From positions 124,001 to 184,733 of the IMG/VR virus record IMGVR_UViG_3300021958_000021: 60,733 nucleotides of DNA; one strand, given 5' to 3'. The position numbers and the translations under genes are program-made. Under the pieces are notes generated by a model. It was not told the origin of the DNA, did not search any database, and saw only the letters and a program-made list of their open reading frames with translations. Every line of letters begins with the position of its first letter. Position 1 is the stretch's first letter. Positions 3,150 through 60,733 of this stretch are shown one piece after another. The DNA comes from an uncultured virus (IMG/VR IMGVR_UViG_3300021958_000021). Its lineage: Duplodnaviria > Heunggongvirae > Uroviricota > Caudoviricetes.

Positions 3150-3596
3150 ATGATAATTAAAGATAAATTTATTGAAACAAGAAGAGCATTTGCTCCTTTG
3201 AACGGTATATCTCATATCTCTTGGTCGCATCATCAAGACGGAGAATATGATGTTAAATTACATTTAGGAAATGACCGAATCATTCAAAGGATGAACAAAG
3301 AAGAATTAGACGAATTAATTCTAGAATTTAAGTCTGTGGATAGAAGTAACATTAATCCCGATAGGCCAATTCTACAAGATTCTATCGGAAAACTATACAT
3401 GGAGAATGGTTTTTTAGAACATTCTCGTAAATGGTCTGTGGACTTAACAGAAGTAGAATTTATTTCGTATAAACAGAATGAAGAAAATTTTACATATTTT
3501 GTTAAACTTCACATTATGACTAAGGAAGTGCGTATTTATTTAGATACGATAGAAGAAGTTGAGCAATTAATTCAAATTTGGAAACAATATAGGTGA
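3150..3596 (+). CDS. Hypothetical protein made of two tandem similar domains
   Basis: Halves align: F(I/L)E..R...I.(H/F)IS(W/Y)...Y.VKLH...EE(L/V)..LI; GGTGA RBS upstream. Confidence 0.7.
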   Translation: MIIKDKFIETRRAFAPLNGISHISWSHHQDGEYDVKLHLGNDRIIQRMNKEELDELILEFKSVDRSNINPDRPILQDSIGKLYMENGFLEHSRKWSVDLTEVEFISYKQNEENFTYFVKLHIMTKEVRIYLDTIEEVEQLIQIWKQYR

Positions 3597-11294: not shown

Positions 11295-11976
11295 TAGTAG
11301 AGAAAAAGAAGGGTCTAAATTAGTTAGACTTGTTGAAACAAAAGCAAGAGGATTAAATATTCCTTTTGAAAAGAAATGGATTGAGATTGGAGATTATGTT
11401 TATGACGACCTTTGCTTTGAAGCAAAATCCGCTACGGATTTTTTGTCATCGGTCATGTCTAAGCGTATTTGGACTCAATTAGATAATATGGATAGACATT
11501 ATAAAACAAATATTGTTATTATTTATGGTAGTGTAGAAGAAGCAATTTTTAATGCTAAGAGATATAGCAAATCTAATATTCCCGAACCTGCTAGAAGCAT
11601 AATGTTAAACAATAAGTTTTTTGCGGCTATTGGAAGAATTGCATTAGACACAGATATAAAGCCGTTTTGGGTAAATAGTGAAGAGGAAGCCTCTTCTATT
11701 ATTACTGCAATCTGCAAAATGAAACCGATTCAAAGAGACACTATTCGGCCTGAAATTTTTAAAAGAATTACTACCGATGATTTAAGGTTAGACATGCTAA
11801 CTTGTATTAAAGGAGTATCAATTAAGAAAGCAAAGGCTCTGTTGAAACAATTTGGTTCAATTATGGAAATCGGAGAATGTTCCGAATTTGAATTGCAGGT
11901 TGTTGATGGTATTGGCGAAACCATAGCAAAAAGAATCTTAGCCACTTTAAGTTCCGAGAGGAAGGTGAAAATATGA
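11281..11976 (+). CDS. ERCC4/XPF (Hef-like) structure-specific nuclease with HhH motifs
   Basis: IIDSRE, GDY, EAKS..DF..S; C-terminal IKGVS and VDGIG HhH motifs. Confidence 0.9.
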   Translation: MLIIDSREKEGSKLVRLVETKARGLNIPFEKKWIEIGDYVYDDLCFEAKSATDFLSSVMSKRIWTQLDNMDRHYKTNIVIIYGSVEEAIFNAKRYSKSNIPEPARSIMLNNKFFAAIGRIALDTDIKPFWVNSEEEASSIITAICKMKPIQRDTIRPEIFKRITTDDLRLDMLTCIKGVSIKKAKALLKQFGSIMEIGECSEFELQVVDGIGETIAKRILATLSSERKVKI

Positions 11977-37904: not shown

Positions 37905-39248
37905 TCATTGAAGGTTGGTGATTTTACCTTGTCCCTTGAAGAAAGAACAACCAACTTCACCAATAGTTCTGTATAAGGCTCTGTTTCCGAGACTCCCAAC
38001 GCCAAATGGATTTCCGTTTGCAATACCATCCTCAAAATATTGGGTTGGCTTCATAACGGATAACCACAAATGGTCGGTATCAAGGAATAATAGGTCAGAA
38101 AGTGGAGAAGTTACTCCCGCATTAGCCGTTTGCGTCATATCCTTGACGGGAATCAAGGGAATATCGTAATAAGTGGCGACTCGGAAACCGACTTCTTGAC
38201 CCTTTGTTCCACGAACACCATTAACGGTGGGAACAATTTCTTTTCTGTCCATAAATCTCTCTTGACTTTGCAAAAGGTCAGCCAATGCTTGAATTGTGTC
38301 ATATCCCGTAAGAATGACCTTTGGCGAACCACCAGCAAGACGAAGGTTGCGAATCATGTCATTTAAACGAGTTAGCGTAAAAGAACGCACATCGCTTGCA
38401 CCATAAGCCGAACCAAAATCTACTTCTGCATCAAGGAAAGATGCGGCAGTAAAACGCTCAGTCCCATAAATTTGACCTAATGCGTTAGAAGCAGAAGCGG
38501 TATCGGTAGCAATAGCCCCACCGTCAATAGCCAATAATTCTGCTCTAGAAGTAACGACCTTCAATAAAGAAGTGTAATTGTTTCCAATGTTAGGCATAGC
38601 CGCACTTTCACCGTAAAACTCCAAAGGCATAACAAGCATTTTATTCTGAACTTCAGCGTGATGCTTACCCATGTCTTCTCTCATTTGCGCTCTAATATCA
38701 CCGATACCATCGTCAATTTGAGCCATCTCCATAGCCAATTCGCTGAAATCAAACTGATGAGCAACAACTTTTGGACTCATGTTCAATTGAGCATAGGTTG
38801 GAGCAATTGGGCCTAAACCGTCTAAAGCGGTAGAAAGACCTGCATTTTCAGGAACACCACCAATTAAATCGGCTCTTGGATTATCCGACCCTAATTCTGC
38901 TAAAGTGGTATCGCCCGAAGAATCCACAGTAAAGAGGTTTCCAGAGCCACCAGCAGGACGGGACTTCAAAACACGCCAACCGCTTGAAGAATATGGACGC
39001 TTTGAAATCATTGAAAGAGCATTGACTTCACGGTTAAGCATAGACCAAACCTTTTGTCCATAAACAATGTTATAAAGGGCAGAAACATCAGAAATGCCGC
39101 TTCCCGAAAAAGAAGGAGAACCGTCATGTCCTGTATGAATACCGCCAACTGCCCCTGCTTGCTTCAAAAGAGCGTTTCCAGCAGGGAGGTTGTTAATTCC
39201 GTAAGTTTGTGCTTCTAAATCTGCAATAGTGTTAATATATCCTACCAT
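37905..39248 (-). CDS. Major capsid protein (HK97 fold)
   Basis: 447 aa directly after the protease-scaffold gene; PKVVAHQF, YYDIPLIP and LFLDT segments are typical of HK97-type MCPs. Confidence 0.85.
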   Translation of the reverse strand: MVGYINTIADLEAQTYGINNLPAGNALLKQAGAVGGIHTGHDGSPSFSGSGISDVSALYNIVYGQKVWSMLNREVNALSMISKRPYSSSGWRVLKSRPAGGSGNLFTVDSSGDTTLAELGSDNPRADLIGGVPENAGLSTALDGLGPIAPTYAQLNMSPKVVAHQFDFSELAMEMAQIDDGIGDIRAQMREDMGKHHAEVQNKMLVMPLEFYGESAAMPNIGNNYTSLLKVVTSRAELLAIDGGAIATDTASASNALGQIYGTERFTAASFLDAEVDFGSAYGASDVRSFTLTRLNDMIRNLRLAGGSPKVILTGYDTIQALADLLQSQERFMDRKEIVPTVNGVRGTKGQEVGFRVATYYDIPLIPVKDMTQTANAGVTSPLSDLLFLDTDHLWLSVMKPTQYFEDGIANGNPFGVGSLGNRALYRTIGEVGCSFFKGQGKITNLQ

Positions 39249-39259
39249 CTTAAATCACC

Positions 39260-40480
39260 TCAAAGGTTTCCTCCGACCATTTTATGAATATCGCTCCAAT
39301 CCATTGTAGCGATTTCATCAACCGTGGGAACATTAATTGCACTATTTTCCTGTGCTTTGCGAATTTCTGCCTTTTCCGAAGTTAAGGCCTTTCTTAATTC
39401 GCTAAACTCATTCTTAAGAGAAGCAATTTCCGAAGCCGCATCATAGTTTTGCTTTGCAATAACATTTTCTCGGCTGTTCACTTCTTGAGCAAATCTATGC
39501 TCAAAAGACTTCTTGAGGTTATCGTAAGCCAAAGCCTCTAATTGCTCTTGGCGGAAAGCCTCATAAGCCTTCTCAATGTTTCCAACGCTCAAATCAAGCG
39601 TTTGCAATTCATTGTTTTGAAATGCCTTAACAACAGGCATATCGGAAGAAGTGGGGCGACCATTGTTAATAACGATTCTATCAGCAGGTTCACCGATTTG
39701 GTTTCCTGCACCGTCAAGGGTTCGGAGATAGGCTTTGTTTTCGGCCATAGACCTTTCATAGTCCCCTTCTTCCATTTCGTCCCCGTTATCGGCCCTTTCA
39801 GTTTCAGGCATTTCGGGCATTTCGGTGTCCATGTATTCGCCCGATTCAATGTCTTCTTCTTCTTCTTTTCTTAACGAATTGACTTCCTTCAAAAGTTCAT
39901 CCAATTCGCCTAATGCTTTTTCCAGTTTTTCTTGTGTCATAACATCACCTGTTTTTTCTTGTTTTAGTATGTCAAATCTCGCTTCGGGGTTAATTCCTTT
40001 TTCGCAGATGGTAATTTCATGCAACTCTAATTTGCTAATTTCGTTGTATTCTCCCATCCTTTCGTGGCTTTTCTTCACTTTTCTCAATGCTTGTCCACCA
40101 ATGCTAAAACTTCTTAACGAACCTTTGCGAATGCCTCTTCCTACTTCTTTTGCTTTTTCTATGTCGTCCCTTAATTTAATCACAACAAAGAATCCGACAT
40201 CATCTACTTCTGATTTCCATAATCTTCCGTTTTTATCTCGGTATGAATCTACTACTTCTCCCACTTGAACATTTGAATGATTTGTCATTACATTTCTGAA
40301 TCTTGGTTCTTCCATGAATTTTTTAACTGCGTCTTGTAAAGCATCTAATGTGATTAAATCATTTTGTTTATCCACGATTTCAATGCTCGCATATCCTCCA
40401 ATCATAAGGTCGTCGCCGCTTTTTAGAATGTTGAAATCATCATTCCTTTGCGCCACGATGCCCCCGTTCATGTGTTTCAA
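39260..40480 (-). CDS. Prohead protease (HK97 family) fused to a scaffolding domain
   Basis: GYAS...VDKQND, NHSN, RSFSIGG, EITIC..GINPEA; acidic/coiled-coil C-half. Confidence 0.92.
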   Translation of the reverse strand: MKHMNGGIVAQRNDDFNILKSGDDLMIGGYASIEIVDKQNDLITLDALQDAVKKFMEEPRFRNVMTNHSNVQVGEVVDSYRDKNGRLWKSEVDDVGFFVVIKLRDDIEKAKEVGRGIRKGSLRSFSIGGQALRKVKKSHERMGEYNEISKLELHEITICEKGINPEARFDILKQEKTGDVMTQEKLEKALGELDELLKEVNSLRKEEEEDIESGEYMDTEMPEMPETERADNGDEMEEGDYERSMAENKAYLRTLDGAGNQIGEPADRIVINNGRPTSSDMPVVKAFQNNELQTLDLSVGNIEKAYEAFRQEQLEALAYDNLKKSFEHRFAQEVNSRENVIAKQNYDAASEIASLKNEFSELRKALTSEKAEIRKAQENSAINVPTVDEIATMDWSDIHKMVGGNL

Positions 40481-40517: not shown

Positions 40518-43022
40518 TTATTTGGTCGGAAGGGGCAATTCATTATACCCGTCCTCATAAATATTCCACAAACCCTTGTCTTTGTCTTTATCTGCGGGAC
40601 TTTGTTTATATCCAGTCCAAGCAATCCACATTTTACCATCATTAGCAGGAACAACCCTAAAATGAATTTTAGTTTCAAATTTATTACCTTCTAAGAAATA
40701 TTCGTGGTAGCCTGACCTTTGAACACCTAACTTTATTTTTCCTTCATCAATCACTTTTTTCTTGTTAATATCCTTTGCGACCATAGCAGGATATTTTGTA
40801 GCCTTTCCGAATAAATTAAAAATGTCTTCATCTTCTTCTAAGTCAATGAACCAGTTAAGGGTTTCTTTCTTTAGTTTAATGACTAGATTTAAATTTTCAT
40901 CATCTCTTAAATAAATTTTAAATTCTCCCTCTTGATATTCTTCCGGAGTTTCATATTTTTTGATTTCCGCCATAATTTTATTCGGGTCATGCACAAACTT
41001 ATTATTTCTAAAGAGAACACCGTGGTCTTTTCCTCTATCTTCCAACCAATCTTTAAGTCTTGCCGATTTAGATTCTAACAAATCTTCATAGAGGTCTTTT
41101 GTGAATTTATTTCCAATTAAATACTTATGTAATTCTTGTGGAGTTTTGTCTCCTGTTTTCTTTAGATAATTAAAAATTGCTACAATAATTTTACTTTGCT
41201 TGGTTTTCATAATTTCTTCGGCCTGTGTTTTCCACATATCCAAATCAGCCAAAGCATTCTTTGACATTAAATTATGTTCTTCAAACCCATAAATAGTAAA
41301 ACCGTTCATGTCCCCTTTAATAATAACTGAGGCTTCACCGTGAATATGGTCTGTAATTTTAATTCCCTTTGTTAATGCCTCAACAGAATAATTTAATGAT
41401 TTCTTAGTATCTTTAGATAACATTTCTAAAGTTACGATTTTTTCAGGAGCATCCACTTCAGGGACTTCAATTACTTTTGCTGAAAAAACAGTATATTTTC
41501 CATTAGATTCCTTAACTTCATCTACCTTTACACGAACAATATCTCCAATGCTAACAGAGATTTTAGTGTTAAGTGCTTTTCCTACATTCATATATTTTTT
41601 ACCATTTAATTCTTGACCTTCCTCTTCATCATCAATTGGGCCAGCACCTAATGTATAGGAATATAATTTACTTTTTGTTTTCTTTTTATCCAAAACAATA
41701 AAATCTAAATCAACAAACTTTTTCCACTTAATCCATTTGGGATTCTTTTTAGTGCCTTGAAAATAAGTAGAAGTAGCATCTTTGATTACAACTCCTTCAG
41801 AAGTGGGCATTTCCATAATTATCTTTGCATATTCTTCAATATCCTTAAGACTATCAGCCATCCTAGTGTCTTTCTTAGAAGGAAAATTAAGAGCATCACT
41901 TGAATGAATTGAATAATTATTAAACATAGTGTTTAATCTTTGTTGAAGAGGCTCATCTAATAATGCTTTATCATTATGTCGCATAATGTCAAACATATGC
42001 GCTTTAAGTGTTGCTTCAGGATATTTATTTTTAAATACATGGGAAATTGTGTCGGCTCTATGTAAAGCCTCATCACCATCAAATAAAATCAATTCTCCGT
42101 CAAGAATACAATCTCCGAAATGTTTCTTTTTCATTTCATTTACAATCTCTTTACATTTATTAGTGATGTCTTTTTCATTATAAGAATACACCGTAACCTT
42201 TTTGTCAATTTTATGAATTTGTATTCTCATACCGTCATATTTTTCTTGAACGATATATTCTCCACTAAATCCTCTTAATTCATTCATATCCTCAATGTCA
42301 AAAATTCTATACATTGGTTTATTGGGGATAATAAAATCAGACTGAGATTTTTCTTCTTCGGACTTAGTTAAATCCACACCATCAATATCAACTAAATCGT
42401 CCCATTCTTCTTCTTGGTGCTTAGATGAATATAATAATTCTAAAAACTCAATGGCTGTCTTTACTTTCTTTTCAACTGCCTTTGAGTCTTTTCCGTCCCC
42501 ATATTGCTCAATAATATATAGGGCGATGTCCTCTTCTTGTAGGTCAAGTCCTTGAAGGCCGCCTGTAATATCGTCAGGTTCCATGTCTTTAATGTCGTAA
42601 ATGTCTGGAGATAGGGCTTTATTGTCTGAACGCATAGCATAATGAACGAATTTAATCATTAACTCTGGTGAGCCAAGTAATTCTTCAAGAACATTCCCTT
42701 TTAACTTTTTAGCGAAAGGGTCACTAACATAATCTGAAGCCATTCGCATATTCTTAATACCTTCATATACTTTTTCAGCCGTATTTGAAGTAGGGTCTGC
42801 CGCTTCTTTATTTTCTATGTCGTCCTTTTCAATAAAATTTTTTAATTCTTCTCCTAATTCACTTGAATTGTCATAAAGGTCTTGAATATCCTCAATTGAC
42901 TTACGCCAACGACCCCCGTATTCTTTGGGGTCTGTTCTTGCAGAAAGATATGCGACTCTTGTTTTTTCAAAGAGTCGCAATATTTCTTCCGAAGGACTGT
43001 CCTTCTCAATGAGATAAGCCAT
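40518..43022 (-). CDS. lig: ATP-dependent DNA ligase with N- and C-terminal extensions
   Basis: Motif I EKYDG, III LDGE, IIIa FDIM, IV EGVVIK, V WIKWK, followed by an OB domain. Confidence 0.92.
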   Translation of the reverse strand: MAYLIEKDSPSEEILRLFEKTRVAYLSARTDPKEYGGRWRKSIEDIQDLYDNSSELGEELKNFIEKDDIENKEAADPTSNTAEKVYEGIKNMRMASDYVSDPFAKKLKGNVLEELLGSPELMIKFVHYAMRSDNKALSPDIYDIKDMEPDDITGGLQGLDLQEEDIALYIIEQYGDGKDSKAVEKKVKTAIEFLELLYSSKHQEEEWDDLVDIDGVDLTKSEEEKSQSDFIIPNKPMYRIFDIEDMNELRGFSGEYIVQEKYDGMRIQIHKIDKKVTVYSYNEKDITNKCKEIVNEMKKKHFGDCILDGELILFDGDEALHRADTISHVFKNKYPEATLKAHMFDIMRHNDKALLDEPLQQRLNTMFNNYSIHSSDALNFPSKKDTRMADSLKDIEEYAKIIMEMPTSEGVVIKDATSTYFQGTKKNPKWIKWKKFVDLDFIVLDKKKTKSKLYSYTLGAGPIDDEEEGQELNGKKYMNVGKALNTKISVSIGDIVRVKVDEVKESNGKYTVFSAKVIEVPEVDAPEKIVTLEMLSKDTKKSLNYSVEALTKGIKITDHIHGEASVIIKGDMNGFTIYGFEEHNLMSKNALADLDMWKTQAEEIMKTKQSKIIVAIFNYLKKTGDKTPQELHKYLIGNKFTKDLYEDLLESKSARLKDWLEDRGKDHGVLFRNNKFVHDPNKIMAEIKKYETPEEYQEGEFKIYLRDDENLNLVIKLKKETLNWFIDLEEDEDIFNLFGKATKYPAMVAKDINKKKVIDEGKIKLGVQRSGYHEYFLEGNKFETKIHFRVVPANDGKMWIAWTGYKQSPADKDKDKGLWNIYEDGYNELPLPTK

Positions 43023-46447: not shown

Positions 46448-46942
46448 CTATTCGTCTTTCAATAATTTAGCGGATTCTATATTAAAATAAAAGTCGCTGT
46501 TGTTAAACACTTGGTTTATTGCCATATCTGTTAATTTATCATACCTATATTTTGAAAATAATACTTCGGGATTTTCGCTGACTTCTTTTTCAAATTTATC
46601 TACTATCAAATCGTAAATTTTGTCTCTAATTTTTTCAGGGCTATTATTTTCAAGATTACTAATAATTTCTTTTTGTGCTTCTACCATTTTTGAATCTCCC
46701 CTTTGTTCGGCAAATTTGATTTTGTCCTTCATATTCCCAAGTATTTTATCATATTCTCTTTCTATCATTTGCAGGACTTGATTGGACATATAAGATTTTA
46801 ATGAACGAATTTTAGTTCCCCTTTGATTTTTTATTGTTTCTTTATTAGGGTCGCTGGTTTTTTTACCGTAGCCATAATTGGGGGTATTTACTGAATCATT
46901 ATTGTTTCTTTTTTTCTTAAGTATGGTAATCCAATCCATCAA
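46448..46942 (-). CDS. Hypothetical protein with W-x-x-ILK tag (MDWITILK)
   Basis: Coupled to the portal stop codon. Confidence 0.65.
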   Translation of the reverse strand: MMDWITILKKKRNNNDSVNTPNYGYGKKTSDPNKETIKNQRGTKIRSLKSYMSNQVLQMIEREYDKILGNMKDKIKFAEQRGDSKMVEAQKEIISNLENNSPEKIRDKIYDLIVDKFEKEVSENPEVLFSKYRYDKLTDMAINQVFNNSDFYFNIESAKLLKDE

Positions 46943-50557: not shown

Positions 50558-51988
50558 TCAAAAATTTAGACCTATGAAGCCATTAGAACGCCCGTATTTG
50601 GGCGTTGAGACAGGCTCAAATAAACCCATATCGTCAAGCAATATGAAGGTTTCACTTAGCGTATGGGTGGCCGCATTCGCTAAGGCGAGGCTCATAACCA
50701 TGTCGTCATGTGCGCCGATTCCCTCAAACTTTCCTCTTTCGGTGATTGCGAACATAGACAACTCTTCAATCAAAGAAGCAGAAACCCTTCTGCTCTCTTC
50801 GTTGCCGTAGGGCAAGTTAATTTTCTCATTCTCAAAATTCATTTGAAGGCTAAGAATAATCTCTTCTTTCTTCTTTCGGGTGGTATTAAAATCATGAACA
50901 TTCAAATCAGAAACATTTCTCAATTCTTGAGTAAATGATTTTGCAAATGTATTTGTTTCAAAGAGGACGGCTTCAGGATGGAAAATTTTTCCAATCAATT
51001 TAACTTTTTGAATATTTTCTCTAAATTCCACATTTTTTGCTCTATCAATATATACGATGGATTTGTTATCGTTTTCATCAACTTCTAAAACAGTAATAAC
51101 ATTGTAGTCACCATCTGTTGAAATTGCAGGGTCTACACCAACATAATATTTATACCCCTCTCTTCTCTGAGGCCTAAGAATATAGTTTTTATTTTTTGCT
51201 TTTTCTAAATATTCTGGATTAAAGAGAGAAGTCCCTGTTGAAATCGGCACACACATATATTCTCTTGTGAACATCAAAGAGCCGACTTCAGCCTTACGAG
51301 CCATTAATGCATCGTAATCCCAACGGTCAGGCCAAAGAGGTTCATTTAGAGAATTAAGGCAAGGATAGGTTCTAACAGTATATGCCTCGTTTTCGGATAA
51401 CTGTTGGTAAATATCAGTATATGAAAAGGGAGTCCCAATAACTCTTAATGAAGCAGTATGGTGAAGAGTCGGAATCATGTCACCATAAAACCAATCCGTG
51501 ACTTTTTGAATACCAGCAATACTAAACTCTTTCAAAGGGTCGTCAATAATAATTTCTTGAGGATGCAAACCACGAATCTGTGAACCAACAGAACGCTCAA
51601 GGATTTGATTTCCATTAGTTAATGTGATGTTTCCAATAGCCCAACCTCTTGCCGGTTTGAATTTTTTAAGCATTGGATGGGTGAACATTTTATCAATATC
51701 TCTCATGTGAACAAGAGTCTGCTTTTGGTTAGATGAAATGTAAAGCATTTGATATGGGGGTTCGGAGAAAATTAATTTCCATACAACCCACGAATGCATA
51801 AATACAGATTTTCCGTGGTCTCTTGAACAAATAATAACGGTTCTTTGTGTATCGTTCATTAATTCGTGCCATTCTTGAATATAGGAAGGAAAGTCAAAAC
51901 CTAAAACATTTTGAAAAAAATATGGGAAGGAGTTTTTAGATAACTCCATATCCATTTGATGTTCAAAATTAAAGGTATCTAATTCCAT
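50558..51988 (-). CDS. terL: Terminase large subunit
   Basis: Walker A SRDHGKS, Walker B IIIDD, GTP motif, RNase H VGVDPA and HDDMVMSLA; likely ATG at 51988. Confidence 0.95.
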   Translation of the reverse strand: MELDTFNFEHQMDMELSKNSFPYFFQNVLGFDFPSYIQEWHELMNDTQRTVIICSRDHGKSVFMHSWVVWKLIFSEPPYQMLYISSNQKQTLVHMRDIDKMFTHPMLKKFKPARGWAIGNITLTNGNQILERSVGSQIRGLHPQEIIIDDPLKEFSIAGIQKVTDWFYGDMIPTLHHTASLRVIGTPFSYTDIYQQLSENEAYTVRTYPCLNSLNEPLWPDRWDYDALMARKAEVGSLMFTREYMCVPISTGTSLFNPEYLEKAKNKNYILRPQRREGYKYYVGVDPAISTDGDYNVITVLEVDENDNKSIVYIDRAKNVEFRENIQKVKLIGKIFHPEAVLFETNTFAKSFTQELRNVSDLNVHDFNTTRKKKEEIILSLQMNFENEKINLPYGNEESRRVSASLIEELSMFAITERGKFEGIGAHDDMVMSLALANAATHTLSETFILLDDMGLFEPVSTPKYGRSNGFIGLNF

Positions 51989-52497
51989 TTTAGAACCCCC
52001 ATCCATTCAGGATTAAAATACTGCATCCATTTTTGCACTTGGTCTGGATAATTTGTCCCTTCCAATTCATCTCGTAATTCTTGGGGCAGTTTATCCATTT
52101 CCATATCTTTGAATCCTTTTCTTCTAAATGAGCCTGAGATTTGAGGATTAGCGATATTAACAAGAAGAGTCTTATTTCCCTTTTCCGAAATAATTTTATC
52201 AAGGAGAATTGAACCTAATCCTCTTCCTCTAAACTCTTCTCTTACATGGACTCCTGCATCTAAAAGAAATCTTTTGTATTTGGCGAAACCAATAACTGCA
52301 ACAGGCTTATTGTTGTAATGTGCTACAAACATAGTAGCGGGTGCTTTAGCCCACAAAGAATCAGGAGAGAGGTTTTTTCCATACCTCATTTTTCTTTTTT
52401 GATAATCAAAGTAACCGTCCTTTTCAAAAGTTTCCACCGCCTGTTCTTCCGACATTTCTCGGAAAGTAATTTCATTAGCAGAAATCTTCTCCGGCAC
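51979..52497 (-). CDS. GNAT family acetyltransferase
   Basis: VHVREEFRGRGLGSILL acetyl-CoA motif, FRRKGF; ends EWMGVLKWN. Confidence 0.85.
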   Translation of the reverse strand: MPEKISANEITFREMSEEQAVETFEKDGYFDYQKRKMRYGKNLSPDSLWAKAPATMFVAHYNNKPVAVIGFAKYKRFLLDAGVHVREEFRGRGLGSILLDKIISEKGNKTLLVNIANPQISGSFRRKGFKDMEMDKLPQELRDELEGTNYPDQVQKWMQYFNPEWMGVLKWN

Positions 52498-52501
52498 TTA
52501 A

Positions 52502-52855
52502 TCACGACCCTTTACGCCAGTTCTTATTCTTTTTCTCTTTGGTCTTTCTTGGACTCCATTTGACCTTATTAGCCCAATAAGCCGCCGACATTTTACCACG
52601 CTTGATGTTCTTTTCGTGGCGATTATAGAATGCCTGTCTTTGTCCGGCAGTTTGATTTGTCTTAACTCCCTTTTGTCCAAAAGGCATATATTTGTATTCT
52701 CCACCTTCGGAAGCCATAACATGATGAGATGCGGTTTTATGGTTTTTTAATCTCTTCGGTTTATTTAATCCTTTAAGTCCCTTTTTCTTAGCCCTTTCTA
52801 CTGCCCTTGACCTTGCGCTCTTAGGCTTCTTTTTGAGAATATCTTCCCATGTCAT
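52502..52855 (-). CDS. Small basic protein with MTWEDILK tag (common marine-phage family)
   Basis: FGQKG...RQAFYNRH...SAAYWA motif. Confidence 0.7.
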   Translation of the reverse strand: MTWEDILKKKPKSARSRAVERAKKKGLKGLNKPKRLKNHKTASHHVMASEGGEYKYMPFGQKGVKTNQTAGQRQAFYNRHEKNIKRGKMSAAYWANKVKWSPRKTKEKKNKNWRKGS

Positions 52856-52859
52856 AATA

Positions 52860-53237
52860 TTACCTCATAATCAAATCGCCATGCTTATGCTTATAAATTA
52901 TCTTTTTACGCATCATGGCATCTAACATTCTATTGAGTTCCTTTGGCGGCGCAATTGATTTTAAATTCTTCATACCCAATGCACCTCCTTCTTTCTTGAA
53001 CATAGCGATAATTTCTTTTTCAATTTGAGAGTCGCTTTTAACAGCCTTTTTCTCTTCGTCTGACTCGTTTAAGATTTTAAAATCTTCTCCTGTAATCTTA
53101 CCATCATTATTAGCATCAATTCTCTTTTGATTTCCAACGAGTTTCTTTTCAAAATCCTGCTTTTGACAAGAAGAACAACCAGCGCAACCGCTTTTCTCTC
53201 CACTACAATTTGCCTTTAAAACCTCTTTCCAACTCAT
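52860..53237 (-). CDS. MSWKEVLK-tagged protein with Cys cluster, EF-hand-like loop and wHTH-like end
   Basis: CAGCSSC; DANNDGKITGED. Confidence 0.7.
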   Translation of the reverse strand: MSWKEVLKANCSGEKSGCAGCSSCQKQDFEKKLVGNQKRIDANNDGKITGEDFKILNESDEEKKAVKSDSQIEKEIIAMFKKEGGALGMKNLKSIAPPKELNRMLDAMMRKKIIYKHKHGDLIMR

Positions 53238-53497
53238 CTTCCCTCAATCCTTCTATATACTTTTTTAGCGGTCTTTCCTCTAGGAACATTTTGTTTTCCT
53301 TTTCTAGTCCCTTCTCTTTTCTTTTTGCTCTCGTATCTTCTTTGTTCTGGCGTAAGAGAATCTTTTACGGCTTGAGGTGCATATCTCCCGCCTTCGGTAG
53401 TAAGGTTTGTCCATTTTTCATTATCCCATTCTACCATATCTTTTTGCTTATCGGTTAAACCTTTAATGGTGTTCCACCAATCATTTTTTATTGACAA
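53234..53497 (-). CDS. Small basic protein resembling the C-half of DUF5872-like phage proteins
   Basis: Likely TTG start after GGTGGTG; KNDWWNTIK, then QKDMVEWDNEKW...GRYAP...KGKQNV. Confidence 0.6.
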   Translation of the reverse strand: MSIKNDWWNTIKGLTDKQKDMVEWDNEKWTNLTTEGGRYAPQAVKDSLTPEQRRYESKKKREGTRKGKQNVPRGKTAKKVYRRIEGR

Positions 53498-53720
53498 AGC
53501 CACCACCTGCCTTTTGATATAGCCTATTAAGTTCTTGTGATTTACGAGCAGACCATTGATATTTGCCTGTTCCATGAGTATTTTTTGCCCACAATCTTCT
53601 ATGAATTTTTGCTCTTAATTTAGGTTTTGTATATACTCCTTTAGGAACTTTATAGGTATATTCTCTTTTTTTCCTTTGGCTTCTTGAAGGTTTCTTTTTT
53701 AGAATATCTTCCCATGACAT
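53481..53720 (-). CDS. Small basic MSWEDILK-tagged protein resembling the N-half of DUF5872-like proteins
   Basis: YTKPKLR...QWSARKSQ...YQKAGGGF; ATG at 53720. Confidence 0.7.
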   Translation of the reverse strand: MSWEDILKKKPSRSQRKKREYTYKVPKGVYTKPKLRAKIHRRLWAKNTHGTGKYQWSARKSQELNRLYQKAGGGFVNKK

Positions 53721-54491: not shown

Positions 54492-57041
54492 TCACCTAAA
54501 GTTTGCTTTAATATAATATACTTCTTCCTTAGAAATACCAAATGCTTTTGAAATGCTATCAAAAGAATCCACTACTTCTACAATGCTATTTAATTCACTA
54601 GCACTAATATCAGTATTGAATTTATTATACATTTTACTAATCATATTTTGAATTGAATCATAATCGTCTAGATTGTGCTTTCCATAATACACAGGCTCTC
54701 TCTTTAAAATCCGAATATTGTCGTGAGCCTCTAGTAGTTTTTTCTGTATGGGGCTTCTCTTTAAATTCTTAATTTGGCTAGCAATTGTATTGATTGCCGT
54801 AAGAGCCGTGGATTTTTTCTCTCTTTCTCCCGATTCGTCTTGTTTATAGCCGCCAAAATAAAGTTCCGCAGAACGCTTGTTAAAGAATCTAATAAAGGTT
54901 TTTAATACTGACATATCAGCAAAATCTTCGTCATTTAATTTAGCATAGGCTTCATCAACATCTATGCCTTCTAATGTCATTTTTTCTTCATCGCCTGTTG
55001 TAGCCTTTAATGCGCCTAACATAGAAGCGGCTTCGCTAACAATTTTGTTATAATATGTATCGGTTTCCTCAACATCATAAATATCTGACATTACTTCAAT
55101 AAACTCAACAAACTGTTTTTTAGCATCATTTAGATTTGTAAAGCCCGTGTTAATTTTTTTCATAATTTTTGCTAGACTAACTAAGTCTTTAACTGCAACA
55201 GATTTAGTTCCTCGCCTAACCATTTTAGAATATAATCTATTTACTCCTTCAAACTTTACACTTTTTCCGTAGGTCATTAAAATATTAATAGCCCCAATAT
55301 CTGCAAAATCAAGGTCTATTCCGAAAGTGTATTCCGACTCACTAGGCCCATAAAAATAGGTTTCAATGTCTTCAATAATATCCTTAATGAAATCAACATC
55401 TTCTTTTTCTTTAAATTGCAAAGCGGGTTTATTTTCGGGCGTGACTTGCCTTTTGTATTGTGTAACTGCTCTTTGAGCCGCTTGCTCAGGTATAGGTATG
55501 GCTAGCCTTGCAGTATCGGAAAATCCTGTTTGGTCTGTTCCGAAAAGCCGCAAATCAATATTTTGAGGCAATACAGTATTATTTTTTTCTAATGCTCTTT
55601 GTAATAAAGCAAAAAAGGTTTGAAGTTTTGTCCCCAAATCCTTTGCATTTGAAGCAAACTCAGAATAATGTTCCAATAATTCTGGACTATCGGCCATAAA
55701 AATTGGAAGGAATCCAGAGCCTTCTTCCTCATATTCATCTAAATTTATCATAAAGTCTGTAAAGTTTCTAATGTCTTCTTCGGTAAATGGGATTCCTTGT
55801 TTGGCGAATAACTGCATAACATCATTCATTTTCATATCGGCTAAACTTTTAAAGAAATCCACCTCAATGTCCGTCGTAAAGGTTCTAAGTGACCTTTTAG
55901 AAGCAATAATTGCTAAAGGCCCAAGAGTCATTTCTTCTGGGTCTAATTCAATTTCTTCAGAAATATTAGATAAATCCAGAGTTGCAGAACGCCGTTGTCC
56001 TTGTTCTCCTTCGGGTAGGCTGGATTGATTGTCTATTCTATTTTGAATTTCTTCATCCATTTGGTCGCCAGTTGCAGTTCTGGCATACTCAGAAGAATAG
56101 ACATCAAACTCTTCTTCTGCCTTTGATTCTGAATAATCTGCCATAGGCCCAGTAACTGCTTCAACAATATTATATACTTCCAAATAGTTATAAATAAAAT
56201 CATTTACTCTTTTATCCATATTAGCCATTTTAATATTTTTTGAAGGATAATCAACAACATACCTTAAAAAATCATATTTTTCCTTTTTAACAAAATCAAG
56301 ATATTTTTTAGCGTCAGGGTCTTTTTCATCTAACATGTCTTCAAGTTTCTCTAGTTTGTTAACGAAAGAAGAAATACCTTTACTAATATTTTCCCAATAA
56401 TCGTGCGCTCTAGAAATCATTTCTGGTTTAATAATTGAAGATGCATCAAAAAAGATTTCTCGGTCTTGAGTAGTGAATTTTATGGCTTTACTTTTTTTGC
56501 CTTTAGGAATGTTAGTTTTAAGTAAAGCATGAAGTTGATTCAAATGTGTGATTTTGATTTTACTTACTTTAAATCCGGGCGTATCTCTTTCAAAAATCTT
56601 AATAAAGGTTTTGATATGCTTAGCCGCAGTATTGACATTAAAGCCCTTGTTAATTCTTACCTTACTAATATTAAAGCCTCTACCTATGTCGGCCAGTTTT
56701 AAAGGCCGGTTTTCATAAGAAAAAATGTTGACATTTTTTAGCATTAGAACTGCGGCCATTTTATCTGCTTTAGCCCCACTAAAATATTCTTTTAATTCTT
56801 TAACAATTTCAAGCGTTACGGTAGTTAAGTCTCCTAATTCAGAAAGACCATCAATTTTTCTAATTGCTCTAAGTGTTGCCTTTTGATTTAAAAAATCTAA
56901 ATCTAAGTCTTTACTAAACTCCGAAGGTTTTAGATTTTGCAACTCTTGAGGAATAATATCTGCTAATCCGCCAGTAAATTTAAAACCCGTGTTTTTATCG
57001 TAATCAAACAACTTAGAGAGATTAAGGAATTGCTGGCTCAT
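54492..57041 (-). CDS. Large hypothetical protein with HTH-like C-terminus
   Basis: 849 aa; ends FDSISKAFGISKEEVYYIKANFR. Confidence 0.7.
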   Translation of the reverse strand: MSQQFLNLSKLFDYDKNTGFKFTGGLADIIPQELQNLKPSEFSKDLDLDFLNQKATLRAIRKIDGLSELGDLTTVTLEIVKELKEYFSGAKADKMAAVLMLKNVNIFSYENRPLKLADIGRGFNISKVRINKGFNVNTAAKHIKTFIKIFERDTPGFKVSKIKITHLNQLHALLKTNIPKGKKSKAIKFTTQDREIFFDASSIIKPEMISRAHDYWENISKGISSFVNKLEKLEDMLDEKDPDAKKYLDFVKKEKYDFLRYVVDYPSKNIKMANMDKRVNDFIYNYLEVYNIVEAVTGPMADYSESKAEEEFDVYSSEYARTATGDQMDEEIQNRIDNQSSLPEGEQGQRRSATLDLSNISEEIELDPEEMTLGPLAIIASKRSLRTFTTDIEVDFFKSLADMKMNDVMQLFAKQGIPFTEEDIRNFTDFMINLDEYEEEGSGFLPIFMADSPELLEHYSEFASNAKDLGTKLQTFFALLQRALEKNNTVLPQNIDLRLFGTDQTGFSDTARLAIPIPEQAAQRAVTQYKRQVTPENKPALQFKEKEDVDFIKDIIEDIETYFYGPSESEYTFGIDLDFADIGAINILMTYGKSVKFEGVNRLYSKMVRRGTKSVAVKDLVSLAKIMKKINTGFTNLNDAKKQFVEFIEVMSDIYDVEETDTYYNKIVSEAASMLGALKATTGDEEKMTLEGIDVDEAYAKLNDEDFADMSVLKTFIRFFNKRSAELYFGGYKQDESGEREKKSTALTAINTIASQIKNLKRSPIQKKLLEAHDNIRILKREPVYYGKHNLDDYDSIQNMISKMYNKFNTDISASELNSIVEVVDSFDSISKAFGISKEEVYYIKANFR

Positions 57042-58945
57042 TCTTCCACCTCAATAAAAGATACACTATTTCCCTTAATATCCAACGAAAAGAATTGACT
57101 GGGCAACGATTCCTTTAAATCTTCACTAACTGTTTTGTCTGCTTTAATCTTGTAGAGAGCCGGATATTTATAAGGATTGCTAATAATGTCCAAAAACTTC
57201 TTTTCAATTCCTTCTTTAAACAAATCTTGTAATAGCGTAATTTCTTCATCAAGAGCATTTAGGAAAGGCTCTATCGCTTCGCTATTGACCCCTTGCTCTT
57301 TATCCTGTTGGTTGGGGGTGTAGATTTTTTCAGCCAAATCGTCAGACCTGCCCGTAATATACTTTTCAAGGAGTCGCAAGAAGGATAAAAGATTATATTC
57401 ATTTTTATCCGAATCTAATTTGGGACTTACCTTATCTCCATACATTAACTCAACAATAGTTTCATTTTCTTCTTTAGCCAAATCAATAAGAGCACCTAAA
57501 ACGCCCTTAACATCTTCTTGAATCCCGACAGATTCATTAATTGTAAATATTTGCCAATTATATTTTTCTGGGTCAAATTCTGAATTTAGTTCCATAAGAG
57601 CGTCATCATCAGCGAATTGCTTTTCCATAATAATATATTCTTTTAATTGTTCAGTTAGTTTTACTTTATTGCCGTCAATTTGCAATTTTTTTCTTTTGTT
57701 TGGGTCAGTTGTGATTTCTAATACATCTGTAACTTCTAAAGGAATATATTGAATAAAAGCAGTTTCTTGAGTATCTTCTGCTTTATCTGATACCTTGACA
57801 CTTCTATCGCCTTCTGAAATTGTAACTTGATACAAACTTTCTCCTCTAGCACCGCTTAAAGTGGCTTTTTCGGCACTTGCATAGGCTTTTAGGCCAGTAT
57901 TAGCAGTAACTAAAACCCCATATACAAAATCATTGGGAATATATTGGTTTCCTGTGGGAATAACTATACCAAATTCTTTATCTGCTATAGAGTCTCCTTT
58001 GATTCTAAACAATAATTCCTTGGTAATTTCCTTATTATTGTCACCATAATTAGTTCTGAGTAATTTAAAATACCCTTCTACTACCGAATTATCCACTTCT
58101 GCGACTTTATATTGCCTTTTAATGGATGGTTCTTTGAACTTAAAATCTTTAATTTTCTTATATTTTGGGTTAAATTCAGTAGTATTTTTAGATATATAAG
58201 TTTCAATTTTAGCATTTTCATCGGATAATCTGAAAGATTTGTTCTTTTTTTGCAGTTTTTCTTGTATTTTATCAATTTTTTCTTGAAATTGTGAGGTAGG
58301 TTCTTTGTTTTCATCTAATTTAAACACTAATTTAAACACCGTTGCAAATTTAGTTGGCCCCTTTTCACTTTCAAAGCCAGAAATTGACTCTAATGGAGAA
58401 TCTATAACAGTTACCTTTAACTTAGCATAATTATAGTTGAGGGTTTCGTCAAATTTGTCATAATTTTCTGGTTTTTTGGCATATTTTTCAAAAAGTTTCT
58501 TCATTTTTGTCAATTGAGCGGCAGTCGCACCCCTTACTAATTTTTTAAGAGAGGCCTGTCTGTGGTTATTATATAAATAGGTCACAATTTCTTTATCATC
58601 CACTAAATATTCATCTAAAGTTTCAAAATTATGCCTTTTTCTGGACATGCGACTAGCAATTTCTCGCTTAACTCTTTGAAAATTTTCAAAAATTGTATCA
58701 ATTTGGTCTTTTACCATGTTTTGAGTAGATTTTTCCATTGAATTTAAAAAGGATTCGGGACTGACATCATCAAATTTTTTAACCAATTGATTAAATTTTT
58801 TCTTTCCTGTGCCTCTTTTTCCAGAGTCTTCTTCTTTATTAATTAACTCAATTAAAATATTCGTAGTCGCATCCGAACCAAGCATTGAAATTAAAGCAAT
58901 CTCCGAAGTAGGGAGAGTTTGCTTTAAAATTGCTCGCCAACTCAT
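57038..58945 (-). CDS. Large MSWRAILK-tagged hypothetical protein
   Basis: 635 aa; preceded by the 22-bp junction repeat. Confidence 0.75.
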   Translation of the reverse strand: MSWRAILKQTLPTSEIALISMLGSDATTNILIELINKEEDSGKRGTGKKKFNQLVKKFDDVSPESFLNSMEKSTQNMVKDQIDTIFENFQRVKREIASRMSRKRHNFETLDEYLVDDKEIVTYLYNNHRQASLKKLVRGATAAQLTKMKKLFEKYAKKPENYDKFDETLNYNYAKLKVTVIDSPLESISGFESEKGPTKFATVFKLVFKLDENKEPTSQFQEKIDKIQEKLQKKNKSFRLSDENAKIETYISKNTTEFNPKYKKIKDFKFKEPSIKRQYKVAEVDNSVVEGYFKLLRTNYGDNNKEITKELLFRIKGDSIADKEFGIVIPTGNQYIPNDFVYGVLVTANTGLKAYASAEKATLSGARGESLYQVTISEGDRSVKVSDKAEDTQETAFIQYIPLEVTDVLEITTDPNKRKKLQIDGNKVKLTEQLKEYIIMEKQFADDDALMELNSEFDPEKYNWQIFTINESVGIQEDVKGVLGALIDLAKEENETIVELMYGDKVSPKLDSDKNEYNLLSFLRLLEKYITGRSDDLAEKIYTPNQQDKEQGVNSEAIEPFLNALDEEITLLQDLFKEGIEKKFLDIISNPYKYPALYKIKADKTVSEDLKESLPSQFFSLDIKGNSVSFIEVEE

Positions 58946-58957
58946 TGTAATCTCTCC

Positions 58958-59200
58958 TTAAAAACCCATAGAATCTAAGTATTCTTTTAATTGCTGCGCT
59001 CTATTTCTATCAACTTTAGGATGAGTAACTAATTCATCCATAAGCATAGATATTTTCTTTTTACTTTCATCTTCATTACCATATTTACCAGAGTTATATG
59101 CTTGATTAAACTTGGTTCTATTGCCCATTAATTTATCCATTTCAATAGTAATGTCGTTAAGCGACTTAAGATTAAACTTTAAAATATCTTTCCAACTCAT
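58958..59200 (-). CDS. Cassette protein, MSWKDILK tag
   Basis: 80 aa between junction repeats. Confidence 0.8.
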   Translation of the reverse strand: MSWKDILKFNLKSLNDITIEMDKLMGNRTKFNQAYNSGKYGNEDESKKKISMLMDELVTHPKVDRNRAQQLKEYLDSMGF

Positions 59201-59499
59201 TATAATCTCTCCTTCATCGCATACAAATCGTATAGATGGCGTTCAAAACCATTTTTCTCACGAAGTAATTTTTGTCCTTCTTCACTATTGTTATCAACGC
59301 TACTCAATCGTGTCTTTATGTCTTTAATATCGCCTTGATAAAATTTTATCATTTTTCTAAGATATGCGTTTAGTCCCATGCTCCTAGCAGTTTCTAACAT
59401 CAAATCCACATATTCTTTTCCTTGTATTGGTTCTATAAAACGCTCAAGTGAGGTTTTTAATTCAGCCAAATCATTTTTCAGTATATCTTCCCAACTCAT
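59200..59499 (-). CDS. Cassette protein, MSWEDILK tag
   Basis: 99 aa between junction repeats. Confidence 0.8.
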   Translation of the reverse strand: MSWEDILKNDLAELKTSLERFIEPIQGKEYVDLMLETARSMGLNAYLRKMIKFYQGDIKDIKTRLSSVDNNSEEGQKLLREKNGFERHLYDLYAMKERL

Positions 59500-59981
59500 G
59501 TTAATCTCTCCTGCATTTTTTTAGCGTGTTGTATTCTTTCTTCATTTGAGTAAAACTGAGCAGTAGTTTCCATCAATTGACTGAATTGTTCGGGTAAAGC
59601 ATAATTGACCCCATTACTCTCAAAGTCATCATAACCGATAAACTCTAGTTCTCCAATCAATTCATCTATTGCTTCCTTAACTTTTTTATCGGAAACCAAA
59701 GTATAGTCTAACTTACCCATACCCGCCATTGTGTATTCAGGGTCATCTTCCAAATCAATGTTTTCTTTAGTTTCTTTTGCTTGCTTTATTGTAGGTTTTC
59801 CTATATCTTTCATAGGTCTTTTTGCATTGACTCCGGAACCATAGACAGAATAAACTACGGCTTGATTAAAATAAGGAGTCCAATAGTTCGTATCTTCTTC
59901 TGATTGGCTTCCTTGATATAAAAAGGGAGTTTCTGTCCCGCCAATAGAATATGGAGATTTCAAGACAGTTTTCCAACTCAT
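59496..59981 (-). CDS. Cassette protein, MSWKTVLK tag
   Basis: 161 aa between junction repeats. Confidence 0.8.
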   Translation of the reverse strand: MSWKTVLKSPYSIGGTETPFLYQGSQSEEDTNYWTPYFNQAVVYSVYGSGVNAKRPMKDIGKPTIKQAKETKENIDLEDDPEYTMAGMGKLDYTLVSDKKVKEAIDELIGELEFIGYDDFESNGVNYALPEQFSQLMETTAQFYSNEERIQHAKKMQERLT

Positions 59982-59983
59982 TG

Positions 59984-60343
59984 TTATCTCTCCTCTAATT
60001 TTTTCTTATCTTCGTAGCCGCCAACCATAACAGGGTAAAACTGTATTTGGCCTTGAATACCCCGAATGAAATCCCTAAATCTCGTAATTTCATCGGGATA
60101 TTTTTCTTTATATTCTTGATACATTTTTCTTGGATTTTCTTCAAATCTTTCCGCTAATCCCAATAACTTTTGATAAATATAACTATCTTCTAATGGGAAA
60201 TTTTCTTCTTTTGCAAAACTTTTTGCTCTTTCTATTTGCATTCTAAAATAACTATTTGTTTCGCTAACATATCTTTTTTCATATTTAGCGTCTTGCTCGT
60301 CGGGACTCAATTTTTTTCTTTTTAAGATGATTTCCCAACTCAT
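59984..60343 (-). CDS. Cassette protein, MSWEIILK tag
   Basis: 119 aa between junction repeats. Confidence 0.8.
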   Translation of the reverse strand: MSWEIILKRKKLSPDEQDAKYEKRYVSETNSYFRMQIERAKSFAKEENFPLEDSYIYQKLLGLAERFEENPRKMYQEYKEKYPDEITRFRDFIRGIQGQIQFYPVMVGGYEDKKKLEER

Positions 60344-60360
60344 TGTTATCTCTCCTGCAT

Positions 60361-60597
60361 TTAATTATTTCCATACTTTAAATTAAGATGAACACTTTCT
60401 ACATATTTAGCGGCTTTATGTATGTCTAGCATTGGTGTCATAATTTGGTCTTTAACTTCACTAGGAACATTCTCATCTCTCAATACTTCCCTAAAGTCTT
60501 CATGTGCTTTATTTAATATCTTTAGAGCAGTTTCTAGGTTTTCTTCATCAGTTCCGAATTTTTCATTAAATTTTAATATTTCATCTTTCCAACTCAT
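60361..60597 (-). CDS. Cassette protein, MSWKDEILK tag
   Basis: Start placed at ATG 60597 inside the repeat rather than at 60633; 78 aa. Confidence 0.8.
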   Translation of the reverse strand: MSWKDEILKFNEKFGTDEENLETALKILNKAHEDFREVLRDENVPSEVKDQIMTPMLDIHKAAKYVESVHLNLKYGNN

Positions 60598-60613
60598 TGT
60601 AATTTCTCCTGCA

Positions 60614-60733
60614 TTAAAATCTTCCTTTAGCATGAAGTAAATCCTTTTTCTTTAATTCAAACCTTAGTGCTTCAAATGTATCTTTATCATATTTATCTTC
60701 TAAGGACTTGATATAAAATCTAATTAATTTTTT
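60614..60733 (-). CDS. 5'-truncated ORF at the window edge (probably the next cassette)
   Basis: Open frame KKLIRFYIKSLEDKYDKDTFEALRFELKKKDLLHAKGRF* ends just before the repeat. Confidence 0.6.
   Translation of the reverse strand, partial: KKLIRFYIKSLEDKYDKDTFEALRFELKKKDLLHAKGRF

Follow-up and report, generated by a model that had tools for sequence, protein, structure and literature searches.

The subject of this analysis is a tandem array of small genes that share a ribosome-binding site, a start codon and an N-terminal peptide tag, found in DNA of an uncultured tailed virus (IMG/VR record IMGVR_UViG_3300021958_000021). The window, by which we mean the whole stretch analysed, comprises 60,733 nucleotides (nt), corresponding to bases 124001–184733 of the 184,733-base record, and its right edge coincides with the end of that record. 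Comparison of the record with itself revealed two colinear genomes of ~92 kb, 70–96% identical, joined head to tail. Genome A extends from record position 1 to ~93922 and genome B makes up the remainder, with the window in the terminal part; genome A is hereafter also referred to as the sister genome. The joint between A and B falls within sequence common to both, and such a joint is the assembler product expected from two circular or circularly permuted strains.

A common start sequence in a tandem array of unrelated genes

The degenerate pattern AGGAGARATWAHMATGAGTTGG matched the window six times with 0 mismatches each, always on the minus strand. The copies start at 58937, 59192, 59491, 59973, 60335 and 60589 and are thus spaced by 255, 299, 482, 362 and 254 bp; the chance expectation for this 22-mer pattern was 0.00 in 100 shuffles. 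A general repeat search widened the unit to six copies of 38 nt, 63–100% identical, at the same spacings. Each 22-bp copy consists of an AGGAGA Shine–Dalgarno (SD) sequence, a 7-nt spacer and the ATG AGT TGG codons (M-S-W) of one minus-strand gene. The repeats and genes are arranged as follows (lengths in amino acids, aa; ORF, open reading frame).

54492–57041, minus strand: 849-aa untagged gene downstream of the array, with a C-terminus that, by eye only, is like that of the sister genome's 818-aa gene
57038–58945, minus strand: 635-aa tagged gene (MSWRAILK..) closing the array, without Pfam or PHROG match
58937–58958, minus strand: repeat copy 1, SD, spacer and ATG AGT TGG of the 635-aa gene
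58958–59200, minus strand: 80-aa cassette (MSWKDILK..), an ORF
59192–59213, minus strand: repeat copy 2, start of the 80-aa cassette, with the upstream gene's end (..MKERL-stop) within it
59200–59499, minus strand: 99-aa cassette (MSWEDILK..); the same family has different neighbours in loci L029 and L048
59491–59512, minus strand: repeat copy 3, start of the 99-aa cassette, with the upstream gene's end (..MQERLT-stop) within it
59496–59981, minus strand: 161-aa cassette (MSWKTVLK..), 95% identical in DNA to the sister genome in a block that ends in the flanking repeats
59973–59994, minus strand: repeat copy 4, start of the 161-aa cassette, with the upstream gene's end (..LEER-stop) within it
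59984–60343, minus strand: 119-aa cassette (MSWEIILK..), missing from the sister genome's array
60335–60356, minus strand: repeat copy 5, start of the 119-aa cassette
60361–60597, minus strand: 78-aa cassette (MSWKDEILK..), of which only the first ~27 nt match the sister genome's 84-aa cassette
60589–60610, minus strand: repeat copy 6, start of the 78-aa cassette
60614–60733, minus strand: 3′ part of a seventh cassette, cut by the record end, orthologue of the sister genome's 68-aa tagged gene

An earlier note on this stretch, made from the letters alone, had described the six copies at these spacings, the SD, ATG and AGT TGG that they give to all six genes, and the C-termini and stop codons (MKERL-stop, MQERLT-stop and LEER-stop) that they encode for the upstream gene. 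All of this was reproduced; only as to strand did the description need correction, since all of the genes and repeats are on the minus strand. At the three junctions concerned, the upstream gene reads through the SD sequence and its stop codon lies inside the repeat. Along the direction of transcription the gene order is 78, 119, 161, 99, 80 and 635 aa, with intergenic distances of 17, 2, −4, −1 and 12 nt. A spacing of −4 to +17 nt leaves no room for separate promoters, and the array genes are probably transcribed as a single operon, as judged from their layout.

The note had also expected the array to continue past the window edge. As that edge is the end of the record, the array cannot be traced beyond it; synteny with the sister genome indicates one further cassette, followed by a conserved 66-aa gene.

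Each interval holds one ORF (80, 99, 161, 119 and 78 aa), and these ORFs are unrelated, as the note had it. We compared 21 proteins of the region all against all by BLASTP after removing their first 10 residues. No pair within a genome scored below E = 0.17, and the only strong pairs were orthologues between genomes A and B. Thus, the array genes are unrelated past their first 10 residues. The alternative that they are diverged tandem paralogues of one gene could appeal to the alike N-termini and the similarly small sizes; the absence of any similarity past residue 10, the 271 clusters described below and the 161-aa orthologues, which remain 74–98% identical so that true relatedness would show, make it extremely improbable.

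Homology searches gave little on function. Neither the six array genes nor ten neighbouring genes, taken from the sister genome and from the beginning of genome B (locus L124), had a Pfam or PHROGs match, and an ESM Atlas search with the 635-aa and 849-aa proteins returned a best score of 0.85 or no usable match. Among 5.8 billion proteins, only 15 are related to the 161-aa cassette; all are metagenomic and 74–98% identical, and within this family the second position of the tag varies (S, T, N or K). An AlphaFold2 model of the cassette built with 14 sequences had a mean pLDDT of 37 and was unusable.

The wider peptide tag M-x-W-x-x-I-L-K

The 22-bp repeat represents a regional DNA version of a peptide tag, M-x-W-x-x-I-L-K, that is much more widespread. 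The earlier note, which was right about the repeat, had missed the tag. To delimit it we scanned the whole record in six frames for ORFs of 35 codons or more that begin with M-x(0,1)-W-x(2,3)-[ILVM]-[ILVMR]-[KR]. There were 31 matches (30 genes), or ~16 tagged genes per genome. Every match lay on the minus strand, and the strand that carries the replication genes had none. The tagged genes are thus confined to the strand of the virion module. The variants include MW.., MNW.., MTW.., MDW.. and MGW.., and a 717-aa head-module gene begins with MWKAIIAKK. The tagged genes of the window outside the array include the following.

46448–46939, minus strand: tagged head-module gene right after the portal gene (MDWITILKK..), found by the tag scan
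52502–53720, minus strand: three more tagged genes (MSW, 79 aa; MSW, 125 aa; MTW, 117 aa) without the 22-bp repeat, one of them with TCA as the Ser codon

Among the copies the I-L-K codons vary synonymously, so that selection acts on the peptide. The 22-mer itself was present in 10 of the 11 array genes of the record (one with a mismatch) versus 0 of the 20 other tagged genes, a count made by eye on the 18-mers upstream of both groups.

The exact 22-mer was found in 114 IMG/VR stretches, many of them on contigs of 90–96 kb. As relatives we used 80 IMG/VR loci found through the 22-mer and taken with their flanks, all of them short-read metagenome contigs. These loci encode 465 distinct tagged proteins, or 488 with the record's own genes. 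Among the 465, the residues preceding W are MS in 254, MT in 80, MN in 51 and M alone in 33; W is followed by K, E or Q and then by D, N or E, W+3 is I in 364 and W+5 is K in 433. Trimmed of the tag, the 488 proteins fell into 271 clusters, 185 of which were singletons. Pfam searches with 150 of 261 cluster representatives gave three matches: PAP2, a pentapeptide repeat and a weak zinc ribbon. Of the few tagged proteins to which a domain could be assigned, a pentapeptide-repeat protein and a PAP2 phosphatase are encoded at L027:9112–9876 and L058:1388–2287, both on the minus strand. Mimicry of DNA is known for the pentapeptide-repeat fold.

In 59 of 68 loci the conserved untagged 66-aa gene forms the upstream border of the array. 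The arrays carry 0–9 tagged genes, the last of which is usually a large one of 590–840 aa. In those 59 loci, AGGAG is present at −15 to −6 in 130 of 201 tagged genes downstream of the 66-aa gene versus 18 of 221 upstream of it, a contrast that is exaggerated by the use of the 22-mer to find the loci. The 66-aa gene forms a conserved untagged pair with a gene for a ~154-aa protein that has an RKRCGLCQ-type Cys motif, directly upstream of the first cassette (L124 9708–10385, minus strand; equivalent in 59 of 68 loci). Neither protein has a Pfam match, and the pair could hold a promoter or regulator of the array.

The start of the tag also shows codon preferences. Serine is AGT in 125 of 142 MSW genes that had not been ascertained through the 22-mer, versus 28% of the Ser codons in gene bodies. 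The second position is almost always S (AGT), T, N or K, all with A-first codons, and the first Lys is AAA in 99% of the tags versus 73% in gene bodies (loci L010–L123). The A-first second position and the AAA bias suggest selection on the mRNA directly after the start codon.

Tag-like motifs occur in unusual positions in a few ORFs. A 693-aa ORF of genome A (L124 1483–3564, minus strand, equal to record 85482–87563) has the interior motifs ..EKSWKDILKW.. and ..APAWFNLLKY.., and looks as if tagged genes had been fused into one frame. A 283-aa gene in the early region of genome B (record 95411–96262, minus strand) begins with two tandem copies of the motif (MWFDILKWEEILK..), and a 251-aa gene (record 97311–98066) ends in one (..EWFNILKRDD-stop) right before the next tagged start. 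A back-translated tag searched against 185,579 species genomes gave 41 single matches in scattered taxa, none with Poseidoniales in the title and with ~13 estimated by chance, and we rejected it as a sign of a cellular origin or of a host link.

Probable cassette exchange at the common start

Genomes A and B have just two array cassettes in common, the 161-aa gene (A 92716–93242 and B 183467–183992, 95% identical) and the 68-aa gene (A 93460–93623 and B 184571–184733, 96% identical). Both shared blocks end inside repeats or within ~30 nt of them. The large tagged genes that close the two arrays are non-homologous (759 aa in A, 635 aa in B).

To place the breakpoints among the relatives we compared the ends of homology blocks with the positions of tagged start codons. 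Across 68 loci, 892 of 1184 block ends lay 0–40 nt after a tagged ATG versus 48 of 1242 random positions, with much of this signal coming from the junction at which the conserved 66-aa gene meets the first cassette. A stricter set, limited to blocks that were ≥88% identical and ≥200 nt long, comprised 49 locus pairs with 37 gap events, of which 10 were indels and 27 were replacements. Here the upstream block ended at 0 to +40 of a tagged start in 47 of 74 cases (random, 3.1%) and the downstream block began at −30 to +5 in 37 of 74 (random, 3.0%). The other block ends fell at starts missed by the regular expression, at the border of a conserved module or in gene interiors. These comparisons of sequences indicate that related genomes differ by whole cassettes, with breakpoints in the common ribosome-binding, start and tag region, as the earlier note had predicted for an alignment of relatives.

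The closely related loci L068 and L070 (96% identical) provide the clearest example. They differ by four indels of a cassette or a pair of cassettes, and the crossover zones measure 21 nt (AATTACAATGAGTTGGAAAGA), ~9 nt, 10 nt (ATTACAATGA) and 8 nt (TAAAATGA). We regard the pattern of cassette shuffling as well supported and its mechanism as plausible.

We also examined Logan contigs from four sequencing runs that match window positions 58900–60650; these break at the repeats or continue into unlike sequence. One contig repeats the replaced cassette of genome A, with 150 nt on the shorter side of the joint. In the remaining 9 of 10 joints the sides are 22–31 nt, which is the length of the repeat, and we did not count them as recombinant molecules or circles. 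The two joints that run back along the sequence have sides of 31 nt. Differences in Logan depth between cassettes come from summed contigs and were left unused.

Several observations weigh against crossing over at the repeat itself. The joint between the two genomes of the record shows that assemblers switch strains here, and some of the mosaics could be chimeras. Homology blocks must end where conservation ends, and breakpoints at the repeat are therefore no proof of crossovers there. The 8-nt zone of L068 and L070 adjoins an untagged conserved gene. Finally, the near-fixed AGT codon, which we considered as proof of gene conversion, was rejected as such, since a preference for A after ATG suffices to account for it.

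The first of these points could be extended to the claim that the mosaics are mostly artefacts, generated by short-read assemblers jumping between co-occurring strains at common sequence. Apart from the joint of the record and the Logan contigs that break at repeats, with 9 of 10 joints having sides of repeat length, one IMG/VR contig (L009) begins exactly at the start of the 635-aa gene. On the other hand, exact identity between repeat copies does not exceed ~21–27 nt, which is below usual final k-mers. Another IMG/VR contig repeats the arrangement of genome A without a mismatch (100% identity) for 6,337 nt, as does the Logan joint with 150 nt on its shorter side for the replaced cassette, and two arrays recur in contigs of different datasets (L020/L055 versus L057/L035). 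Moreover, allele switching cannot make cassettes that one strain does not have. Artefacts are thus an improbable source of most of the mosaics.

A stronger competitor, although still an unlikely one, is that the common sequence is kept only for a strong start and the tag. Illegitimate recombination, followed by selection for joins at gene borders, would then leave the repeat to mark the breakpoints without causing them. The selection on the tag peptide seen in its synonymous I-L-K codons and the explanation of AGT by A-first second codons fit this account, as does the 8-nt zone next to an untagged gene; the genes abut, and hence any viable join must fall at a start. It is less easily reconciled with the tagged genes outside the array, which use other ribosome-binding sites and spacers (22-mer in 0 of 20 versus 10 of 11), so that function does not force the 22-mer. 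The clean indel in L068 and L070 lies between two identical 21-nt stretches. In addition, PeSL repeats of T4-type phages have been shown to recombine in this way (PMC2839356).

We lean towards the repeat being a recombination substrate. The locus would then be an array of hypervariable accessory genes in a tailed virus of the magrovirus type that infects marine archaea (see below), and in this array whole genes are exchanged, gained and lost among related viruses by recombination across the short common start sequence. An incoming gene would automatically acquire an SD sequence, a start codon and the beginning of the tag, an expectation of the earlier note that is supported. As a whole, this explanation (an operon with a common start, recombination of cassettes and a docking tag) is the best that we can offer, and we hold it to be rather probable.

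The closest precedent is the PeSL system. There, repeated expression signals flank ORFans in hyperplastic regions of T4-type phages (Arbiol et al. 2010, PMC2839356). When these signals recombine, genes are lost, gained or replaced, and the crossovers have been mapped to the stretch from the SD/ATG to the −10 box. The likeness consists in indels and replacements with crossovers within a repeated expression signal that flanks ORFans, so that an inserted gene gains expression. The PeSL repeat differs, by the same account, in being a promoter and stem-loop terminator in intergenic DNA, whereas the array has no intergenic space and no stem-loop at the junctions. The repeat here comprises the SD, the start and the first tag codons, and expression and address therefore move together. 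By analogy with PeSL, the process looks like general short-homology or microhomology recombination.

The earlier note had called the system integron-like and had supposed that it operates without a dedicated integrase. The second claim held: the 184.7-kb record had 0 matches to the tyrosine recombinase family PF00589, for which the controls matched in 14 of 14 genomes, and 0 matches to the serine recombinase family PF00239. The first did not. Integron arrays resemble this one in their tandem one-gene cassettes of unrelated functions and variable content, mostly promoterless and here probably so, but here there is no integrase, attC hairpin or attI, and the repeat lies inside coding and translation-start sequence. 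A search for attC-type hairpins yielded 23 inverted pairs in 56800–60733, none associated with the six junctions. The crossover zones, 8–21 nt long, also differ in position within the repeat. Because integrase and attC features were both absent on testing, the array is not an integron; a true integron-type site-specific system, for which only the flanking repeat and the probably promoterless one-gene cassettes would speak, has next to no likelihood.

The enzymes involved would most likely be general recombination proteins of the virus or its host rather than a site-specific integrase. The window encodes three candidates, their roles being putative.

3593–4411, plus strand: AAA_24 (RecA-like) protein
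8910–9821: PD-(D/E)XK nuclease
11269–11976: ERCC4 nuclease

A RecA-like protein plus nucleases is the kind of set that makes up phage recombination modules.

A tag-like protease tail and the possible destination of the tagged proteins

The virion module of the window encodes the large terminase (TerL), the portal, an S78 prohead protease and an HK97-type major capsid protein (MCP), as identified with Pfam and PHROGs. Two of these genes concern the tag.

37905–39248, minus strand: MCP, candidate receptor of the protease tail and the tag
39260–40480, minus strand: S78 prohead protease, 406 aa, with an acidic coiled-coil C-terminal half and a tag-like end (..MDWSDIHKMVGGNL-stop, 39263–39304)

The protease orthologue of genome A ends in ..MDWADIHKMVGGNL, and a 107-aa head-module protein of genome A ends in ..MDWSDIHKMVSKME. 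To see how widespread such tails are, we used 80 of at least 597 MCP-bearing IMG/VR contigs. An ORF ends just upstream of the MCP gene in 74 loci, and in 73 of these its end is [ML]-x-W-S-D-I-H-[KR]. Thus M, W, D, I and K are common, at the same spacing, to the tag (M-x-W-x-D-I-L-K) and the tail (M-D-W-S-D-I-H-K). We then built a position-specific scoring matrix from 413 IMG/VR tags only and scored with it 93,118 six-frame positions of the record. All of the 33 matches above 8 bits were on the minus strand and 30 of them were tags or evident variants. Ranks 31–33 were the three C-terminal tails, namely those of both proteases and of the 107-aa head-module protein.

The inner side of the capsid protein is bound by the C-terminal tail of the protease in HK97 and of the scaffold in phages and herpesviruses. 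For a protein to be loaded into an HK97-fold shell, a terminal peptide of ~10 residues suffices. HK97 gp4, the herpesvirus and P22 scaffold tails and the encapsulin cargo peptides are like the present case in being short terminal peptides (tail M-[DE]-W-S-D-I-H-K in 73 of 74 loci). A difference is that the tail is C-terminal and the tag N-terminal; capsid binding of tag and tail is putative. Most likely the tag would serve for docking, being akin to the conserved tail at the C-terminus of the protease or scaffold, and it would load proteins into the procapsid, as the capsid targeting sequence (CTS) does for the internal proteins (Ips) of T4.

In T4, a short N-terminal sequence directs the Ips into the prohead, from which they are injected to block host restriction (PMC3012670, PMC12373910). 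T4-related phages encode at least 10 Ips, recognised by their targeting signal, and among the Ips of T4 itself three are directed against GmrSD restriction enzymes, a different one in each case (PMC12373910). The T-even Ips are likewise unrelated small proteins, non-essential and with only a short N-terminal sequence in common, and their number and kind differ among related viruses, as also seen here. Packaging, cleavage of the targeting sequence by the prohead protease and injection, which are features of the T4 Ips, are putative here; the host is archaeal, the tag sequence is another one and the scale is larger (~16 tagged genes per genome, 271 clusters). By analogy, the system would work like the T4 Ips with their CTS and PeSL combined. 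We know of no likeness between a targeting tag and a protease or scaffold tail in T4.

Targeting to the capsid is the best single reading of the tag that the sequences allow, although we would put it at somewhat less than an even chance; that the cargo is injected and acts on the host is less likely still. For the virion-delivered effectors supposed in the earlier note, which are putative, support is indirect only and comes from the likeness of tag and tail and from the confinement of the tagged genes to the virion-module strand. The fullest form of the proposal must be regarded as doubtful. It would have magroviruses use a portable docking tag, W-x-x-I-L-K with six to eight residues, which would descend from the protease or scaffold tail or imitate it, to load hundreds of protein families for co-injection into Poseidoniales, the DNA of the tag doubling as the recombination site. 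A complex prediction for the MCP (42-row alignment) with the 80-aa cassette, run without controls, scored 0.00 in both runs and is no evidence either way.

A number of findings speak against the capsid as destination. Some 16 tagged genes per genome is many for capsid cargo, and many of them map to what is presumed to be the early region. A few proteins have tag-like motifs in their interior or at an end, and the protease of the cultured halovirus HVTV-1 does not have such a tail.

The array might evolve as proposed while the tag, as an amphipathic helix with W and the I and L residues on one face, docks elsewhere: on a host protein, a viral chaperonin, a membrane or a protease that sets the time of the proteins' removal. 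The number of tagged genes, including early-region genes distant from the head module, and the internal and C-terminal motifs would suit such a hub. In the literature records available, the string WKDILK occurred only in papers on frog antimicrobial helices, and the motif-string search as a whole matched only unrelated peptides. The matrix search favours the capsid, as the best matches other than tags were the tails of the protease/scaffold and of another head-module protein; so does the distribution of the tag, which the replication-gene strand lacks and head-module genes have. Docking elsewhere is possible, if on the unlikely side.

We file the virus under Magrovirales, at the level of the order, on its genome size and gene content. 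The marks of magroviruses are a genome size of 90–100 kb, opposed modules, a split PolB and a ligase in the structural module (PMC5434244, PMC10768690). The present virus has a tailed-virus genome of ~92 kb, PolB, RFC, a structural-module ligase and opposed modules. Its replication genes in the window include an RFC-like clamp loader, a split family-B polymerase, an ERCC4 nuclease and a PD-(D/E)XK nuclease. Two features are characteristic.

5919–7541 and 7966–8919, plus strand: split family-B DNA polymerase in two ORFs, separated by a gap of ~420 nt
40518–43022, minus strand: 834-aa protein, encoded between the portal and protease genes, that has an ATP-dependent DNA ligase domain

A split PolB has been reported for magrovirus group B1 (PMC5434244). 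The 834-aa protein is the ligase that magroviruses have within the structural module. The closest annotated relatives of the MCP are those of haloarchaeal tailed viruses, at 24% identity, in an annotated phage collection that contains no reference magrovirus. The virus resembles the Magrovirales (e.g. Aoguangviridae) in its ~92 kb, its opposed replication and morphogenesis modules, its RFC and split PolB and its halovirus-nearest MCP.

Magroviruses, which are abundant and uncultured, infect archaea that are among the commonest in the surface ocean, and most of their genes lack a functional assignment. Within the literature searched, covering main texts, the array and the tag are not previously described in this virus group; the accessible main texts of the magrovirus papers that we examined mention no tag, array, N-terminal motif, cassettes, recombination or mosaicism, and a literature search for capsid targeting in archaeal tailed viruses yielded one paper only, on a giant Salmonella phage. 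The tag places ~16 genes per genome, otherwise nearly without known function (3 of 150 representatives with a Pfam match), in one functional class. The array would bring repeat-guided gene shuffling, so far documented in T4-type phages, to archaeal viruses, with a repeat that extends into coding sequence. Should the tag prove to be a capsid address, sequence data would be enough to list the cargo of virions and the counter-defence proteins that are probably injected, and foreign proteins could be loaded into archaeal virus capsids. If, further, genes are tagged by the recombination itself, a captured gene would become expressed and virion-addressed in one step; this would amount to an effector-capture system in archaeal viruses, the injected effectors of which could be read directly from metagenomes.

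Some minor observations concern the same genes and the record. A GNAT acetyltransferase has a tag-like C-terminus, which, like the tagged starts of the gene after the portal and of the 717-aa head-module gene, points towards loading into the procapsid.

51979–52497, minus strand: GNAT acetyltransferase ending in ..EWMGVLKWN-stop

The end of the protease domain within the prohead protease (39260–40480, residues ~170–180) reads ..EARFDILKQE.., which is tag-like with F in place of W. The record of two joined genomes is rated 100% complete, and genome B is short of ~300 nt at the record end.

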